From contig JAGVYT010000043.1 of NCBI GenBank assembly GCA_018303115.1, forward strand, positions 1 to 46,718: a stretch of 46,718 bases of DNA. The letters are read 5' to 3'. Below are positions 6,212 to 45,280 of this stretch, piece by piece. Source of the DNA: Candidatus Woesearchaeota archaeon. GTDB taxonomy: Archaea > Nanobdellota > Nanobdellia > Woesearchaeales > UBA10216. The translations under genes were made by a program, and so were the position numbers. Every line of letters starts with the position of its first letter. The first letter of the stretch is position 1. Below the pieces are notes generated by a model. It did no database searches. It worked only from the letters and a program-made list of their open reading frames with translations, and was not told the origin of the DNA.

Positions 6212-7578
6212 ATGATTCACCTCAGCAATTCTCTTCAGCATTACAAAAGGCCTGAGATACAGGAAGCAATAGCAGAGCACGCCTCCAACAAGGAGGTTGC
6301 TGCCCGCTTCAACGACCGCTTCGGAAAGAGGCCGGACGTTTTGCAGTATCCGAGTGATGTCCTTGAGATGGCTAGGAAAGGAGCAACTTCCTTCCACTGC
6401 TCAGAAGAGCTTTGGAGCAATCCATTGCAGCTAAAGCCATTGATGAACAGAAAAGAGCTTGACAACTTGCGAGTCGGTTGGGATTTGGTGATTGATATAG
6501 ATTACAAAGATTTTCAATATTCCCAATTAGCTGCGGATCTTATAATAAAGGCGCTACGTCATCATAACATTCATAGCGTTTCAATAAAATTTTCAGGAAA
6601 TAAAGGATTCCATATTGGAATGCCGTTTGAAGCGTTTCCTTCAGAATACAAAGGCATAGATATGAAACTACTTTTTCCAGACGCCACAAAGAGAATTGTC
6701 CTTTATCTTAACGAAAAAATAAAAACCCAACTTACAAAAAAACTTTTAGATGTCGAAGGCGGCAATATTGCTAAAATAGCAGAAAAACTTGGCGTTTCTT
6801 TCAACGTATTGAGCAATGTCGATAAGGTTAAAAAAATAGCAAACTTAATGCACAATTCATTCCTTAATACCGATTTAGGACTTATATCCTCACGACATAT
6901 GTATAGAATGCCTTATTCACTACACGAAAAATCAGGGCTTGTTTCATTACCTATACCTGTTGATGACATAATGGCTTTTGATAAAAATTCGGCAAAACCT
7001 GAGAAATTACAGCTTTCAGATGTAACATTTTTGGATAGGACTAAAGCAGCACCATCGGAAGCCGCTGACTTATTTACGAAAGCTTATGATGCAACGTTTG
7101 AAGTCCCCGTAGCAGATAAGACAGAAAAAGAGTATGAAATCCCCGCAGAGGCAGTGCCTGAAAAGTTCTTCCCGCCATGCATACAAAAGCTGCTGCTTGG
7201 GGTAGAGGACGGGAGGAAAAGAACATTATTCATCCTTACTAATTTCCTCGCAAGCTGCTACAAAAGCTGCTGCTTGGGGTAGAGGACGGGAGGAAAAGAA
7301 CATTATTCATCCTTACTAATTTCCTCGCAAGCTGCGGCTGGGGCTACGAAGCCATGGAAGAAAGACTGAGGGAATGGAACAAGAAAAACCGCGAGCCACT
7401 GCATCAAACATATTTCCTTGGGCAGCTGCGCTACCACAAGCAGCATAAAAAGAAGGTACTGCCGCCAAACTGCCACAACCAGGCATACTACCAGGACTTA
7501 AGAGTTAAATGCGAAGAAAGCATATGCAGCAAATTCAAGAACCCGGTAGGGTATGCGAGAAGGAAGGCCGGCCACTGA
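6212..7578 (+). pseudogene. priS: fused PriS / PriL-CTD-like DNA primase, reading frame broken by a 77-bp tandem duplication (possibly an assembly artefact)
   Basis: ORF 6212-7282 carries PriS motifs: DLVIDIDY, FSGNKGFHIG and SRHMYRMPYSLHEKSGL. ORF 7354-7578 continues a Cys-rich PriL-CTD-like domain (PPC..., LASC, PPNC, VKCEESIC). Deleting one 77-bp copy joins both frames into one 429-codon ORF (...FLASCGWGYEAMEERLREW...). Confidence 0.8.
7182..7335 (+). repeat. exact 77-bp tandem direct duplication (2 copies)
   Basis: 7182-7258 and 7259-7335 are identical base for base (TACAAAAGCTGCTGCTTGGGG...CTCGCAAGCTGC). 77 is not a multiple of 3. Confidence 0.95.
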
Positions 7579-12732: not shown

Positions 12733-12865
12733 GCAATGCGTCTGCTGTCATAGCGGAAGACACAAATAATTATTGACAAAATAGCTGTGTCTTCCTGATA
12801 TAGCGGCTGACAAGCATGTGCAAAAACTAATGTCAGTCGCTATAGGTTTGAAGACTGGTGATTAA
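12733..12865 (+). other. 133-nt structured spacer occupying the slot where archaeal operons usually carry the RNase P protein Rpp29 (rnp1)
   Basis: Hairpin 1 is GGAAGACACA (12755-12764) / TGTGTCTTCC (12786-12795). Hairpin 2 is TATAGCGGCTGACA (12799-12812) / TGTCAGTCGCTATA (12831-12844, one G-U). No ORF is present. Confidence 0.5.
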
Positions 12866-13565: not shown

Positions 13566-13693
13566 GGGGGATATTCAAAATGAAAGCATACTCACTATCG
13601 TTCGTAGCCAAACTCACTGCCGTTCGTAGCTTTCGTCCCGAAAGTTTCATTTTGAAAGCAGGAACAGGGGGATATTCAAAATGAAAGCATACT
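13566..13693 (+). repeat. CGTTCGTAGC-core repeat element flanked by a 27-bp exact duplication of the rpl24 SD/start region
   Basis: GGGGGATATTCAAAATGAAAGCATACT occurs at 13566-13592 and 13667-13693 (period 101). Core copies lie at 13599-13608 and 13621-13630. A CTTTCG-TCC-CGAAAG hairpin lies at 13630-13644. AAAATGAAA (13577-13585) pairs with TTTCATTTT (13645-13653). The micro-ORF 13580-13684 (34 codons) ends in ATGA on the rpl24 start. Confidence 0.8.
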
Positions 13694-15228: not shown

Positions 15229-15459
15229 ATGACTGTGTCCTCCTACAAAAAAATGCTGAAACAACTCAAGGAAAAACCCTTCATCATGAAGAGATACCTA
15301 AAGCACAATAAGCCTAAAGAAAGGGAATTCGGAAAGGGGACAAAACAGTGCGAGGAATGCTGGAACACGCGCGGCATGATAAGCAAGTATGGCCTCTTTA
15401 TGTGCAGAAAATGTTTCAGGGAAAATGCCGTGAACTTAGGGTTTAAAAAATTCAGCTGA
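15229..15459 (+). CDS. rps14: 30S ribosomal protein uS14 (zinc-binding type), ~20 aa longer at the N-terminus than usual
   Basis: FGKGTKQCEECWNTRGMISKYGLFMCRKCFRENAVNLGFKK. An internal ATG at 15289 is an alternative start. Confidence 0.9.
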   Translation: MTVSSYKKMLKQLKEKPFIMKRYLKHNKPKEREFGKGTKQCEECWNTRGMISKYGLFMCRKCFRENAVNLGFKKFS

Positions 15460-15462
15460 TTA

Positions 15463-15670
15463 ACATGTCAGAATTTTCCACCAATATGCGGTTGAAGGCG
15501 AGTTTTGCTTGCTATAACGATTTTGCATGGTCGGAAATGTCAGAAACGAAGTTTCTGAGCACTCAAAAATCCGAAGGATTTCTGATGATTCTGATCATGC
15601 TCAAAAACCACTTCATGTGGTTAACAAGGAGGACATTCCCCCAGTCTTCGACTGGTGGTTTTTGACATGT
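15463..15670 (+). mobile_element. MITE-like 196-bp hairpin-rich insertion flanked by 6-bp direct repeat ACATGT at the rps8 start codon
   Basis: ACATGT occurs at 15463-15468 and 15665-15670 (period 202). Removing the insert restores the 12-bp palindrome TTAACATGTTAA, with the rps8 ATG 5 nt after the rps14 stop. Internal hairpins: 15540-15558 (8 bp, GAA loop), 15567-15581 (6 bp, GAA loop), 15606-15622 and 15641-15655 (6 bp, TTC loop). Termini are weakly inverted (CAGAA...CCACCA / TGGTGG...TTTTTG). Confidence 0.45.
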
Positions 15671-16056
15671 TAAACGACCCATTAGCAAACGCGTTGTCGG
15701 CGATATTGAATGCCGAGTCGCGCAGCAAGAAAAGCTGCTCAATAACTCCCGTGTCTGGCATTATTAAAAAAGTACTCGCCATAATGAACAATGGCGACTA
15801 TATTGGCAAGTTTACTGAAACAGAGACATCAAAGGGCATAGTGCTTAATGTGGAGCTGCTTGGCGCAATCAACAAGTGCGGGGCTGTAAAGCCAAGGTAT
15901 GCTGTGAAAAACAACGGTTTCGAAAAATTCGAAAAAAAATTCCTGCCTTCAAAAGATTTTGGTTTTATCGTCGTTTCAACCCCTCAGGGGGTAATGACTC
16001 ACATAGAAGCCAAGCAAAAATCCCTTGGAGGGCGCCTGATAGCGTATTTTTACTGA
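15667..16056 (+). CDS. rps8: 30S ribosomal protein uS8
   Basis: Track ORF 15655-16056 trimmed to ATG 15667 (MLNDPLANALSAILNAE, the canonical uS8 N-terminus). Confidence 0.93.
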   Translation: MLNDPLANALSAILNAESRSKKSCSITPVSGIIKKVLAIMNNGDYIGKFTETETSKGIVLNVELLGAINKCGAVKPRYAVKNNGFEKFEKKFLPSKDFGFIVVSTPQGVMTHIEAKQKSLGGRLIAYFY

Positions 16057-35599: not shown

Positions 35600-35887
35600 A
35601 TGGAAATCGCTGTTATAGGCAGGGAAGACTTTTGCCTTGGATTCAGACTGGCGGGCATAAAGAAAATAATTGAAACAGAAAAACCACAGGAAGCAATTTC
35701 AGCAGTAAAGCAGGATGCGTCAGTCGGAGTGGTTGTTTTCGATGAAAACCTGCTTGAAAGATTGGATGCTGATGAAAAAGAGGCATTAGAAGACTCGTTA
35801 AAGCCAATATACATAACATTGTCAACCAGAGCGTCAGAGGATACACTTAAAAAGATGATTAGAAAATCCATAGGTGTTGAGCTATGA
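35600..35887 (+). CDS. atpF: A-type ATP synthase subunit F
   Basis: MEIAVIGREDFCLGFRLAGI, the typical subunit F start. Confidence 0.88.
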   Translation: MEIAVIGREDFCLGFRLAGIKKIIETEKPQEAISAVKQDASVGVVVFDENLLERLDADEKEALEDSLKPIYITLSTRASEDTLKKMIRKSIGVEL

Positions 35888-37614
35888 AAACAGGAAAGAT
35901 TTACAGGATTGCAGGGCCGGTTGCTGTTGCAGAACTGGATGCGAGGATGTTTGACATAGCCCTTGTAGGCGATGAAAAGCTTCTTGGGGAAGTCATTCAG
36001 ATTAACGGCAACAGGTGCACTATTCAGATTTACGAAGACACCACAGGCCTAAAGCCCGGAATTCCGGTCGTCAATACAGAAGAGCCGCTTAACATTGAAC
36101 TAGGGCCAGGCTTACTAACTTCCATTTACGACGGAATTCAAAGGCCCCTGCCCCGTCTTAAAGAGCAGATGGGAGACTTCGTCAGGAGAGGAGCGACCGC
36201 TACCGGCATTGAGCGCAGGAAGGAATGGGAATTTAAAGCAACAGCAAAAAAAGGGGACGACATAACAGGCGGTTCTGTCATAGGAGAGGTTATGGAAGGG
36301 CAGATGCTCCATAAAATAATGGCCCCTCCGAATACAAAAGGAAAAATAACTGAAATAAGCTCAGGCTCTTTTACTGTCGATGAAGTCGTTTGCAAACTTG
36401 ACTCCGGGGATAAGATAAAACTGATGCATAAATGGCCTGTCAGAAAGCCAAGACCAACCTCCAAGAAGCTAATTCCAAACATCCCCCTTATTACCGGCCA
36501 GAGAATATTTGATGCCCTGTTCCCCCTTGCAAAAGGAGGAGTAGCAGCAATACCAGGAGGCTTCGGAACCGGCAAAACTGTAGCGCAACAGACGCTTGCA
36601 AAATGGAGCGATGCTGAAGTGATAGTCTACGTAGGCTGCGGGGAGCGCGGCAATGAGATGACTGAAGTCCTTACCGAATTCCCAAAGCTGACAGACCCGC
36701 GCTCAGGAAAGCCCCTGCTTAACAGGACTATTCTCATCGCAAACACATCCAACATGCCAGTGGCTGCTCGTGAGGCCTCAATCTACTGCGGCATGACCAT
36801 GGCAGAGTATTACCGCGACATGGGCTATAATGTGGCTGTGATGGCAGATTCCACCTCCAGATGGGCAGAGGCAATGCGGGAAATCTCTTCGCGCCTGGAA
36901 GAGCTTCCAGGGGAGGAGGGCTACCCGGCATACCTTTCAACAAGGCTCGCAGACTTTTACGAAAGAGCAGGCCGCTACAAAAACCTTAACAATACAGAGG
37001 GCTCCATTTCAGTTATCGGGGCGGTATCCCCTGCAGGGGGGGACTTCTCAGAACCCGTAACACAAGGCACGCTGAGAGTTGTCAAGTGCTTCTGGGCTCT
37101 TGACTCAAAACTTGCCCAAAGAAGGCACTTCCCTGCAATTAACTGGCTTACCTCTTATTCGCTTTACTTAAGCTCTCTTGAGCAGTGGTTCTCTGAGAAC
37201 GTAGCAGAAGACTGGAGAAGCGCTGTTGATAAAATTATGTCTATCCTGCAGGAGGAAGAAAAGCTTCTGGAAATAGTGCAGCTAGTCGGCTCTGACGCAT
37301 TGCCCGAGAGAGAGCAGGTAACCCTTCAAATTGCCAAACTCGCAAGGGAAATGTTCCTTCAGCAGAACGCCTTCCATGCAGTTGACACTTACTCAGAGCC
37401 GAAGAAAACCTATTCGTTTATGAAAACAATCCTGAAATACGGCGATTTGGCTTACAACGCGTTAGGCAGGGGCTCAAAAGTATCTGAGATAATATCAATA
37501 AAGTCAAAAGAAAAACTTTCAGATGTAAAATTTGAAAAGGACTATGAGAAGCTTCTTAATTCTATTGTTAAGGAAATGGAGTCTGAATTCAGCAGGCTGA
37601 AGGTGCAAAAATGA
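35884..37614 (+). CDS. atpA: A-type ATP synthase catalytic subunit A
   Basis: Walker A GGFGTGKT, the non-homologous region typical of A subunits, and MADSTSRWAEAMREIS. No intein. Confidence 0.96.
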   Translation: MKTGKIYRIAGPVAVAELDARMFDIALVGDEKLLGEVIQINGNRCTIQIYEDTTGLKPGIPVVNTEEPLNIELGPGLLTSIYDGIQRPLPRLKEQMGDFVRRGATATGIERRKEWEFKATAKKGDDITGGSVIGEVMEGQMLHKIMAPPNTKGKITEISSGSFTVDEVVCKLDSGDKIKLMHKWPVRKPRPTSKKLIPNIPLITGQRIFDALFPLAKGGVAAIPGGFGTGKTVAQQTLAKWSDAEVIVYVGCGERGNEMTEVLTEFPKLTDPRSGKPLLNRTILIANTSNMPVAAREASIYCGMTMAEYYRDMGYNVAVMADSTSRWAEAMREISSRLEELPGEEGYPAYLSTRLADFYERAGRYKNLNNTEGSISVIGAVSPAGGDFSEPVTQGTLRVVKCFWALDSKLAQRRHFPAINWLTSYSLYLSSLEQWFSENVAEDWRSAVDKIMSILQEEEKLLEIVQLVGSDALPEREQVTLQIAKLAREMFLQQNAFHAVDTYSEPKKTYSFMKTILKYGDLAYNALGRGSKVSEIISIKSKEKLSDVKFEKDYEKLLNSIVKEMESEFSRLKVQK

Positions 37615-37789
37615 AAGCATGCTCACTGGCGTTCGTAGCCAAACTCACTGCCGTTCGTAGCTTTCGTTCCGAAAGCAGACTCGCTGGCGTTCGTAGCTTT
37701 CGTTCCGAAAGTTTCATTTTTGGGTGTTCAAAATGAAAGCATGCTCACTGGCGTTCGTAGCTTTCATTTTGAGGTGTTCAAAATGAAAG
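37602..37789 (+). repeat. two tandem modules of the CGTTCGTAGC-core repeat element inserted at the atpA-stop/atpB-start junction
   Basis: The initiation-region motif GGTG(C/TTC)AAAATGAAAG occurs three times (37602-37617, 37723-37739, 37773-37789). Core copies lie at 37630-39, 37652-61, 37688-97 and 37752-61. GCTTTCG-TTC-CGAAAGC hairpins lie at 37660-37676 and 37696-37712. A perfect 11-bp stem joins AAAATGAAAGC (37730-40) and GCTTTCATTTT (37760-70). Micro-ORFs 37611-37736 and 37733-37786 are chained by ATGA overlaps. Confidence 0.8.
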
Positions 37790-39150
37790 AGTACAAAACC
37801 ATAAGCAGGGTTGCAGGGCCCCTTGTTTTTGTAAAGAAAACAGAGCCTGTTTCATATGCAGACATGGTAAAGGTGCTTCTCCCAAACGGGGAGGAAAAAA
37901 ACGCGCAGGTTCTGGACACTAGCGACGACCTTGTTGTAGTCCAGGTTTTCGAAGGCACTTCCGGAATAGACCTCAACACAAGGGTCAAGTTTCTCAACCA
38001 GCCGATGAGGCTCCATGTATCAGAGGAAATTCTTGGCAGAATCCTTTCAGGCTCCGGGAAGCCCATAGACGGCGGCCCTGAGATGGTTGCCGACAAGATA
38101 ATGGACATAGCCGGAGCAGCGATAAACCCCTACTCAAGAAGCAACCCCGAGGACTTCATACAAACAGGCATCTCAACCATAGATGCAATGAACACGTTAG
38201 TCAGAGGCCAAAAACTGCCTATTTTTTCAGCTTCCGGCCTTCCCCACAACGAAATCGCATTGCAAATTTCAAGGCAGGCAAAGGTAATCGGAAAGGAGAC
38301 AAACTTTGCGATTGTCTTCGCTGCCATGGGCATAACAAATGAAGAAGCCCAGCGCTTCATACAGGACTTTGAGCAAACAGGGGCTTTAGAGCGCTCTGCA
38401 GTTTTCCTCAACCTCGCAAGCGACCCTGCAGTTGAAAGGCTTCTGACCCCACAGCTGGCGTTAACTGCTGCAGAATACCTGGCATTTGAAAAAGACATGC
38501 ACGTTCTTGTTATCCTGACTGACATGACAAATTACTGCGAAAGCCTGCGGGAGATAGGAAGCGCCCGTGAAGAGATTCCTGGAAGAAGAGGGTATCCTGG
38601 ATACATGTACACCACGCTGGCAAACATATACGAGCGTGCAGGCATGATTAAAGGCAAAAAGGGCTCAATAACCCAGCTTCCAATACTGACAATGATTGGC
38701 GACGACATAACACACCCAATCCCGGATTTGACAGGCTACATTACAGAAGGCCAGATTGTTCTAAGCAGGGAGCTTCACCAGCGCAACATATACCCCCCAA
38801 TTGACGTTCTGCCTTCCCTTTCAAGGCTTATGAACCTAGGAATCGGCTCTGACAAAACCAGGGAAGACCACAAGCAAGTTTCTGACCAGCTCTACGCATT
38901 TTACGCTGAAGGGAGGGACTTGCGCGGCTTGGTTGCCATAGTCGGAGAAGAGTCCCTGTCCGAGCGTGACCGCAGGCTTCTGAAATTCGCTGCCGAGTTT
39001 GAAAGCAAATTTGTCAAGCAAGGCAAAAACGAGGACAGGGGCATCTCAGGCACCCTGGACACCGGGTGGAAACTGCTCTCTGAAATCCCTGAAAGCGAGC
39101 TTTCAAGGGTAAGCCCTGAAATGAGGCGCAAGTATTATGGCAAACGTTAA
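37783..39150 (+). CDS. atpB: A-type ATP synthase subunit B
   Basis: Track ORF 37720-39150 trimmed to ATG 37783 ([17 protein letters not shown], the canonical N-terminus). An in-frame ATG at 37741 inside the repeat is an alternative. Confidence 0.95.
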
Positions 39151-45047: not shown

Positions 45048-45053
45048 GCTTAT

Positions 45054-45124
45054 GCGGCAGTGATCTAACGGCATGATTCGAGCTTCCCAAGCTTGCTGTC
45101 CGGGTCCAATTCCCGGCTGCCGCA
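45054..45124 (+). tRNA. tRNA-Gly (anticodon CCC), no intron, CCA not encoded
   Basis: Folded by hand. Acceptor GCGGCAG/CTGCCGC plus discriminator A. Anticodon stem CGAGC/GCTTG with loop TTCCCAA. T stem CCGGG/CCCGG. The D stem is weak (ATC/GAT plus a T-T mismatch). The T loop reads TCCAATT rather than TTCRAAT. Confidence 0.75.
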
Positions 45125-45280
45125 TGTCAAGAACACCCGGGCTGAAGCCCAGGGCGTGTTCTTGAGCACGCTCAGAGGCGCTGTATGCTAACTGCCCACT
45201 AAAGTGTCCTCACTTTGTTCGGGACTTGCCTTCGCTACGCTTGGCAAGTAAGTAGATTGCGCATCAGCGCTTCTGATGTT

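Follow-up and report, generated by a model that had tools for sequence, protein, structure and literature searches.

A hairpin-rich insert at the S14-S8 junction of the ribosomal-protein operon in a groundwater member of Woesearchaeota, probably a copy of a dispersed repeat family

The window analysed here, a 46.7-kb contig stretch to which all coordinates refer (+ strand unless stated), comes from a groundwater archaeon that its S8 protein places in Woesearchaeota (DPANN), and carries the ribosomal-protein operon of this organism. In this operon a 202-nt insert lies between the stop codon of the S14 gene and the start codon of the S8 gene, and it is fixed in this species-level lineage. We consider it very probable that the insert is a copy of a non-autonomous, modular and hairpin-rich repeat dispersed through Woesearchaeota; the idea that the translation of S8 has stayed coupled to that of S14 across it is plausible. 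The hairpin-repeat family is new, its kind (small non-autonomous prokaryotic repeats) being already known; no description of it was found in the literature.

The S14-S8 spacer measures 207 nt in the window and is the same in all the near-identical contigs that cover the junction (99-100% identity to the window). An identical S8 is encoded by 18 contigs, which come from groundwater and sediment samples and belong to independent assemblies (ENA, JGI and Logan), and the sole difference inside the insert among the near-identical contigs is one single-nucleotide polymorphism, T15538G, in one contig. The operon spans 7.8 to 21 kb of the window, from L3 through SecY, and its junctions range from -14 to +7 nt, with the exception of SUI1-S17 (133 nt), L14-L24 (116 nt) and S14-S8. 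Since position 1 of the Pfam S8 profile aligns with residue 4 of the protein that starts at ATG 15667, this ATG is the true S8 start. In 155 relatives (77 from GTDB and 78 from metagenomes) the S14-S8 spacer is mostly 5-20 nt long, with a median of 9-10 nt, as compared to 207 nt here; about a dozen of these relatives have spacers of 50-278 nt, whose sequence is unrelated to the insert. The nearest GTDB or metagenome relative among the matches listed, with an S8 81% identical, has a 5-nt spacer, TGATAAAAATG. The removal of 202 nt from the window restores TGATTAACATGTTAAAC and likewise leaves a 5-nt spacer. Moreover, one run from the same aquifer contains an empty site, in a low-depth contig that shares about 89% identity with the end of S14 and joins 15462 to 15667 via 'CA', with a 5-nt spacer. 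An earlier note on this DNA, made from the sequence alone, had reconstructed an empty site of this kind, read the spacer as an insertion and suggested that the junction be compared in relatives; both its reconstruction and its reading stand. The metagenome scan gave no relative above 81% S8 identity among the matches listed. Fuzzy and covariance-model searches found no right-end domain of the element (described below) in 771 kb of operon neighbourhood around S8 from 156 relatives, so that landing within this operon is rare.

Inserts are also present at the S14-S8 junction of other Woesearchaeota lineages, where they are independent of, and unrelated to, the one in the window. At locus L083 (2938-3001) a Shine-Dalgarno sequence and an ATG are found in the insert, together with an open reading frame (ORF) of 18 codons whose TAA overlaps the S8 start in ATGTTAA. 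The spacers of L042 and L049 have in common a GACCTCTTT…AAAGAGGTC hairpin straight after the S14 stop, expanded to 171 nt in L049.

Over 15633-15667 the depth of metagenome contigs leaps from 5-18x to 440-1550x, and many metagenome contigs match only this segment and continue on both sides with unrelated AT-rich sequence. Summed in the aquifer metagenome runs X1, X2, X4 and X5, the depth of the right-end core is 100-1550x, as compared to 5-18x for this genome. An exact 28-mer gave no match in GTDB genomes, and the 17-mer GACTGGTGGTTTTTGAC from the right end was found at 120 loci or more, at least. About 61 of the 17-mer matches listed share the hairpin context; almost all of them lie in Woesearchaeota or Nanoarchaeia metagenome-assembled genomes (MAGs), and at least 35 assemblies are represented, one MAG often contributing several contigs. 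Further copies, for which the earlier note had advised a search within the genome, thus exist in other MAGs, as a multi-copy family. In some of the MAGs that carry copies, S8 is only 52-60% identical to that of the window, and therefore the family spans a deep divergence. MAG DASRUK01 contains four paralogous copies that are identical over at least 140 nt, have different flanks and diverge exactly after …TTTTTGACA, which indicates recent mobility and a fixed right boundary.

Family copies are 80-290 nt long and built of modules (boundaries are marked here by a caret). The left end reads (A)TGTC(A/G)GAAA(TTTT) and is followed by a 9-bp hairpin, CCACCAGTC-TNT-GACTGGTGG; its subtypes are TAAA^ATGTC(A/G)GAAATTTT, TATA^TGTCGAAAATATA and TTTAAAC^ATCGGAATT, and the complete type-1 left end is ATGTC(A/G)GAAATTTT-CCACCAGTC-TNT-GACTGGTGG. 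After the left hairpin comes a variable stretch ending in GAAAATTTCYGA. The middle is made of zero to several TCRRAAAT…ATTTYYGA hairpin modules, with GCATGC-like linkers between them. The right-end domain consists of TCAAAAACCAC, about 22 variable nt and CATGCCACCAGTC-TNT-GACTGGTGG-TTTTTGACA, and the right end …GGTGGTTTTTGACA^ was found in about 60 copies. The left and right hairpins have the common consensus CCACCAGTC-TNT-GACTGGTGG on the same strand, and the terminal inverted repeats are TGTCARAA / TTTTGACA. The hairpins of both ends covary. For the left hairpin, which played no part in ascertaining the copies, the figures are as follows: 94.4% of the cells are paired, as compared to 82.4% in shuffles, double compensatory changes occur in five of its nine pairs, and the signal collapses in slid controls. 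The stem mismatches (21 G·T vs. 10 A·C) are too weak an indication to tell a constraint on the top strand from one on the duplex.

All the 41 copies examined are intergenic, and the orientations of their neighbour genes show no bias: (+,+) in 10 cases, (-,-) in 10, (+,-) in nine and (-,+) in seven. This result argues against a role of the family as terminator or promoter, and in favour of a selfish element. Consistent orientation downstream of genes, as expected of a terminator or of a stabiliser of mRNA of the repetitive extragenic palindrome (REP) type, was not observed among the copies, and no conserved ORF was found in them.

Some other identities were considered for the repeat and discarded. 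A CRISPR repeat, suggested by the depth of the 35-nt segment 15633-15667, does not fit, each matching contig having one copy and the unit being the right end of longer elements. A fragment of rRNA or tRNA, or a mimic of the S8 binding site, has no Rfam support, and the copies are dispersed and intergenic. The single match in a viral collection is due to chance and lies inside a coding region without the hairpin. Finally, a right end that regenerates start codons is not a trait of the family: TG after GACA is no commoner than expected, and such cases start no genes.

The hexamer ACATGT is present at 15463-68 and again at 15665-70, exactly as the earlier note had reported, and had been taken for a 6-bp palindromic target duplication. 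This interpretation had to be abandoned. No target-site duplication of 2-6 nt was detected at any boundary offset in 41 full copies as compared to flank-permuted controls, which the matches between left and right flanks exceeded by at most a few copies. The left flanks of these copies read TTTAAA, TTAAAA, TTTATA or TTAATA (TTAACA in the window), the right flank is unconstrained, and the last six bases of the element, TTGACA, obey the same T-T-N-A-N-A pattern as the left flank. Since there is no duplication and the right end is fixed at …TTTTTGACA, the simplest reading of the repeated ACATGT is that of inverted termini (TGTCA…TGACA) seen together with their flanks, that is, left flank ACA plus element TGT on one side, and element ACA plus right flank TGT on the other; the boundaries of the element are ambiguous within these 6 nt. 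The element TGTCAGAA…TTTTTGACA would have inserted at the centre of TTAACA^TGTTAA without duplication, by a mechanism that may recognise the end hairpins and the TTWAWA left flank. Either this hexamer is preferred as a target, or it forms the outermost bases of the element itself. The closest analogy would be single-strand HUH/Y1 transposition, as in derivatives of the insertion sequences (IS) IS200/IS605 and in REPINs.

The features of the window copy are collected in Table 1. Its right-end domain was recognised, at full length, by the covariance model R1, which was built from 38 copies other than that of the window (67.3 bits, E = 3.3e-12). The left end, ATGTCAGAATTTTCCACCA, is the type-1 left end minus one base. 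The terminal inverted repeats are TGTCAGAA / TTTTGACA, which become 14 nt long when the palindromic flank is included, so that the inverted termini noticed earlier are present, as are the short hairpins: TCAGAAAC-GAA-GTTTCTGA at 15540-58, TCAAAAATCC-GAA-GGATTTCTGA at 15563-85, CCAC-TTCAT-GTGG at 15608-20 and CCCCCAGTC-TTC-GACTGGTGG at 15638-58. The hairpins at 15540-58 and 15563-85 match optional modules of copies L107, L134 and L189, and a weak covariance-model match was found at 15537-15562. A Shine-Dalgarno-like GGTGG is located at 15654-58, 8 nt upstream of the S8 ATG. When the window was searched for repeats, by fuzzy matching and with covariance models, it yielded no right-end domain besides this one. 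The copy is partly decayed, and old or immobilised, because its left hairpin has decayed and its right hairpin is mismatched; it may also be composite, because a second ATGTCAGAAAC start is found within it at 15537.

Table 1. Genes, element parts and predicted helix arms at the S14-S8 junction of the window
Feature	Position	Strand	Remarks
Ribosomal protein S14 gene, 76 aa	15229..15459	+	ORF; Pfam Ribosomal_S14, E = 4e-9; stop TGA 15457-59
Left flank hexamer TTAACA	15460..15465	+	fits TTWAWA conserved left of family copies
14-bp terminal helix, 5' arm	15460..15473	+	pairs with 15660-15673 (predicted)
Bridging ORF, 66 codons, ATG…TGA	15465..15665	+	no protein-family match (Pfam)
Inserted element TGTCAGAA…TTTTTGACA, 202 nt	15466..15667	+	right end set by family
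Left-end domain TGTCAGAA-TTTT, then degenerate hairpin CCACCAATA-TGC-GGTTGAAGG	15466..15498	+	hairpin keeps 5-6 of 9 pairs
Internal hairpin modules ATG-TCAGAAAC-GAA-GTTTCTGA-GCAC and TCAAAAATCC-GAA-GGATTTCTGA	15537..15585	+	variable number in other copies
Right-end domain ATGCTCAAAAACCAC, variable stretch, CATTCCCCCAGTC-TTC-GACTGGTGG-TTTTTGACA	15597..15668	+	model R1
Right-end hairpin and T5 run	15638..15663	+	one C·U mismatch vs. consensus CCACCAGTC
14-bp terminal helix, 3' arm	15660..15673	+	includes bridging-ORF TGA 15663-65 and S8 ATG 15667-69
Ribosomal protein S8 gene, 129 aa	15667..16056	+	Pfam Ribosomal_S8, E = 1e-22

A 66-codon ORF, already described in the earlier note, bridges the insert. 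Its ATG lies 5 nt past the S14 stop and its TGA 1 nt ahead of the S8 ATG, and both codons are conserved parts of the family ends. According to the RNA fold model, the terminal duplex between 15460-73 and 15660-73 amounts to -15.2 kcal/mol, and in the modelled mRNA the probability of being unpaired is 0.001 for the S8 AUG and 0.02 for GGUGG. When a ribosome footprint at the S14 stop was forced to be unpaired, these values rose to 0.35-0.39 and 0.25, respectively, so that the translation of S14 would partly unmask S8. We propose that the element is co-transcribed with the operon and that its ends would pair in the mRNA, locking the S8 AUG and the upstream GGUGG. A ribosome terminating at the S14 UGA would melt the 5' arm and thereby partly unmask S8; it might also restart at AUG 15465, read 66 codons, thereby opening the entire element, and terminate 1 nt short of the S8 AUG. 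The cell probably continues to make S8 because ribosomes leaving S14 open the element or read through it, and from this model we infer that the translation of S8 stays coupled to that of S14, with ribosome flux via either route. The bridging ORF itself is probably a by-product that may relay ribosomes.

A second element of the window, the CGTTCGTAGC element (13566-13680 and 37608-37790), bears on this idea. At the L14-L24 junction, a 34-codon ORF starts with ATG 13580, and its TGA and the L24 ATG overlap (ATGA). This 101-bp insert is missing from the 99.9%-identical strain contig L002 (3999-4015), where the spacer is 15 nt; it is thus polymorphic, whereas the insert between S14 and S8 is fixed. 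Two tandem units (37608-37790) lie between the genes for the A (35884-37614) and B (ATG 37783) subunits of the A-type ATPase and are linked by successive ATGA overlaps: the stop of atpA overlaps with ATG 37611, the end of the 41-codon ORF that starts there overlaps ATG 37733, and the 17-codon ORF from ATG 37733 ends overlapping the atpB ATG. Four junctions of the window, i.e. S14-S8, L14-L24 and those of the two tandem units in atpA-atpB, hence fit the pattern of a relay insert. Such an insert, as we picture it with considerable reserve, would have an AUG at its upstream end, a stop abutting the displaced start and paired ends that keep the downstream AUG near the upstream stop. That elements survive in coupled essential operons only in this form, selection having filtered or reshaped the copies for ribosome flow, is a doubtful proposition; the three relay ORFs of the CGTTCGTAGC element share descent and therefore give limited independent support. 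The statement of the earlier note that the insert is unrelated to the CGTTCGTAGC element is questionable. The two have the junction motif GCATGCTCA in common; CATACTCACTnnCGTTCGTAG adjoins the ATGTCAAAAACC terminus, on the right flank, of family copies in L133 and L208 (two MAGs), and CTCACTACGTTCGTGAG, similar to CATACTCACTnnCGTTCGTAG, lies inside copy L177. These shared motifs suggest that the CGTTCGTAGC element and the hairpin-repeat family are modules of one superfamily.

The earlier note had explained the locus by a classical cut-and-paste MITE (a transposon of miniature size with inverted repeats), with a 6-bp ACATGT duplication and a bridging ORF kept open by selection for coupling, an explanation that we regard as rather unlikely. 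The resemblance to a MITE holds as far as small size, multiple copies and terminal inverted repeats are concerned, and ACATGT does stand on both sides of the insert, but the 41 copies gave no signal of target-site duplication and the right boundary is fixed at …GACA^. With regard to selection, the bridging frame is open in just 4.8% of dinucleotide shuffles of fixed length, with an extra factor of 1/3 for the length class; none of the element's seven remaining stop triplets lies in this frame (stops per frame 1, 6 and 1), the only badly degenerate part of the window copy is its left hairpin, and the CGTTCGTAGC element also forms relay ORFs, at three junctions. On the other hand, this test was made post hoc on one locus, and the three junctions are of common descent and not independent. 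The lengths of the other copies of the ATG type favour no frame, 6 of 19 being in frame, and the ORFs of the 19 other left-ATG copies measure 6-55 codons and span the element in two copies only, L145 and the 89-nt L155. In the co-directional and tightly flanked copies L210 (0 and 1 nt), L198 and L094 there is no bridging ORF, all frames containing stops. The open bridging frame is thus peculiar to the window copy and mildly unlikely by chance, i.e. weakly non-random, and it is compatible with survivorship selection, of which it is only suggestive. That the ORF is instead a genuine small protein gene is highly improbable, even though it begins 5 nt after the S14 stop and runs uninterrupted for 66 codons: it has no Pfam match, the equivalent frame of other family copies is broken after 6-36 codons, its sequence is composed of palindromic modules at the DNA level, and the lone strain polymorphism changes Met to Arg.

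We also considered that the spacer might be a functional RNA specific to this lineage, such as an autoregulatory binding site for S8, an attenuator, a terminator, a hairpin that stabilises the mRNA or the gene of a small RNA. The fold of 15455-15680 is highly stable (-79 kcal/mol), and folding of the + strand (z = -5.8) beats that of the - strand (z = -4.4) with respect to shuffles; in addition, a hairpin followed by T5 lies just upstream of S8, and the spacer is fixed across all sampled strains. However, the same sequence family occupies intergenic sites that are unrelated to one another, in either orientation with respect to its neighbours, and is missing from the S14-S8 junction of the 155 relatives, and Rfam gave no match at the gathering score, the lone C/D snoRNA match being at chance level (E = 0.76), so that this explanation is improbable. 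An assembly artefact or chimera at the palindrome is hardly credible. Contig L007, assembled by MEGAHIT, does open with a fold-back, its positions 1-79 being the reverse complement of 15663-15741 fused at the terminal palindrome to 15460 onward, which is probably an assembly or library artefact due to the inverted ends. Nevertheless, the same spacer was recovered in ENA, JGI and Logan assemblies from different samples, and contigs of four runs cross the insert at even depth.

Some points weigh against the interpretation of the insert as a mobile repeat that leaves S8 coupled to S14. The copies were sampled via one exact 17-mer, so that the conservation of the right end is overstated, and the conserved left hexamer could belong to the element rather than to the target. 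No autonomous copy was found, the ORFs between distant end pairs being ordinary genes, and no transposase was detected among the twenty window ORFs scanned with Pfam; the transposition mechanism is therefore an analogy. As for S8, its unmasking is a prediction of a thermodynamic model, the co-transcription of the element is proposed, processing or termination at the T5 run may occur, and GGTGG, 8 nt upstream, could permit independent initiation.

REPs and REPINs with their RAYT transposases, as well as the palindrome-associated elements derived from IS200/IS605 (PATEs), are known in bacteria and haloarchaea. Like these, the Woesearchaeota elements are small, non-coding, intergenic and present in high copy number, have same-strand hairpins near both ends, lack a target-site duplication and show an asymmetric short conserved flank, here TTWAWA on the left (unless this hexamer belongs to the element), similar to the terminal TTGACA of the element. 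They differ in that no Y1/HUH transposase has been linked to them; compared with REPINs (PMC3116915, PMC3337134), they are longer and have a more modular build, the GTAG/CGTC tag known from bacterial REPs is absent, and the host is a DPANN archaeon. By analogy, the family most resembles IS200/IS605 derivatives and REPINs, because of the absence of duplication, the same-strand end hairpins and the asymmetric conserved left flank.

A census of 2024 (PMC11602168) put the MITE density of one Woesearchaea genome at about 105 per Mb. Classical MITEs, such as the Correia elements of Neisseria and those derived from IS630 or IS5, are likewise 80-290 nt long, with short terminal inverted repeats and many copies per genome, are often co-transcribed with neighbour genes and can sit inside operons; the Woesearchaeota family differs from them in having no target-site duplication, no known parent IS with the same ends and an interior made of a variable string of hairpin modules. 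BOX of Streptococcus pneumoniae has the structure boxA-boxB(n)-boxC, and bacterial interspersed mosaic elements (BIMEs) are enterobacterial. With both, the family shares fixed end modules, a variable number of internal hairpins, strong predicted RNA structure and the lack of its own transposase, whereas there is no sequence relation, the host is archaeal and the end structure is another one. The palindromic elements of Rickettsia stay open-reading inside genes. Coxiella MITEs do so as well (PMC5896051). The window insert resembles both in being a palindromic mobile element whose inserted copy is predicted to present no stop to ribosomes; however, those elements add peptide segments within a coding sequence, whereas here the insert is intercistronic and the ORF separate from both proteins. 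As regards translation, coupling by long-range mRNA pairing or by termination and reinitiation is known from MS2 coat-replicase and from bacterial and archaeal ribosomal-protein operons. The predicted masking of the downstream start by pairing beside the upstream stop is of this kind, and the UGA-N-AUG and UGA-N5-AUG spacings suit reinitiation; the difference is that the masking helix would here derive from the inverted ends of a transposon, as deduced from a sequence model.

Other observations concern the rest of the window, in which the archaeal RNase P RNA and one tRNA are also encoded. The 133-nt SUI1-S17 spacer (12733-12865), the third long junction of the operon, contains the inverted repeats TGTCATAGCGG… / …ATGTCAGTCGCTATAGG, with GACTGGTGA directly upstream of the S17 ATG, and may be the relic of a related element. 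Right after tRNA-Gly (45053-45125), a structured repeat at 45124-45280 shows the same pattern, ATGTCAAGAACAC…GTGTTCTTGAGCAC-GCTCAGAGGCGC…GCGCATCAGCGCTTCTGATGT, with a weak match to the family model (E = 0.07). Finally, 77 nt are perfectly duplicated in tandem (7182-7335) where a primase-like ORF (6212-7282) has its 3' end.

For Woesearchaeota, earlier knowledge of such repeats was limited to the automated census figure of MITE density; here a concrete and widespread family is defined by its ends and modules, by the covariation of its hairpins and by the absence of a target duplication. Its identical 31-mers break assemblies and inflate depth, which is relevant to the binning of Woesearchaeota genomes. 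Contigs of this genome break inside the element (L003, L009), and among the causes of fragmentation in Woesearchaeota assemblies this repeat is a likely one. In the tiny genomes of DPANN archaea, which are dense in genes, an element fixed between coupled ribosomal-protein cistrons shows how selfish DNA is tolerated. The S14-S8 locus lends itself naturally to testing translational coupling in archaea. If the relay idea were true, operons would tolerate the insertion of transposons, by means of relay inserts, in a manner not described before.

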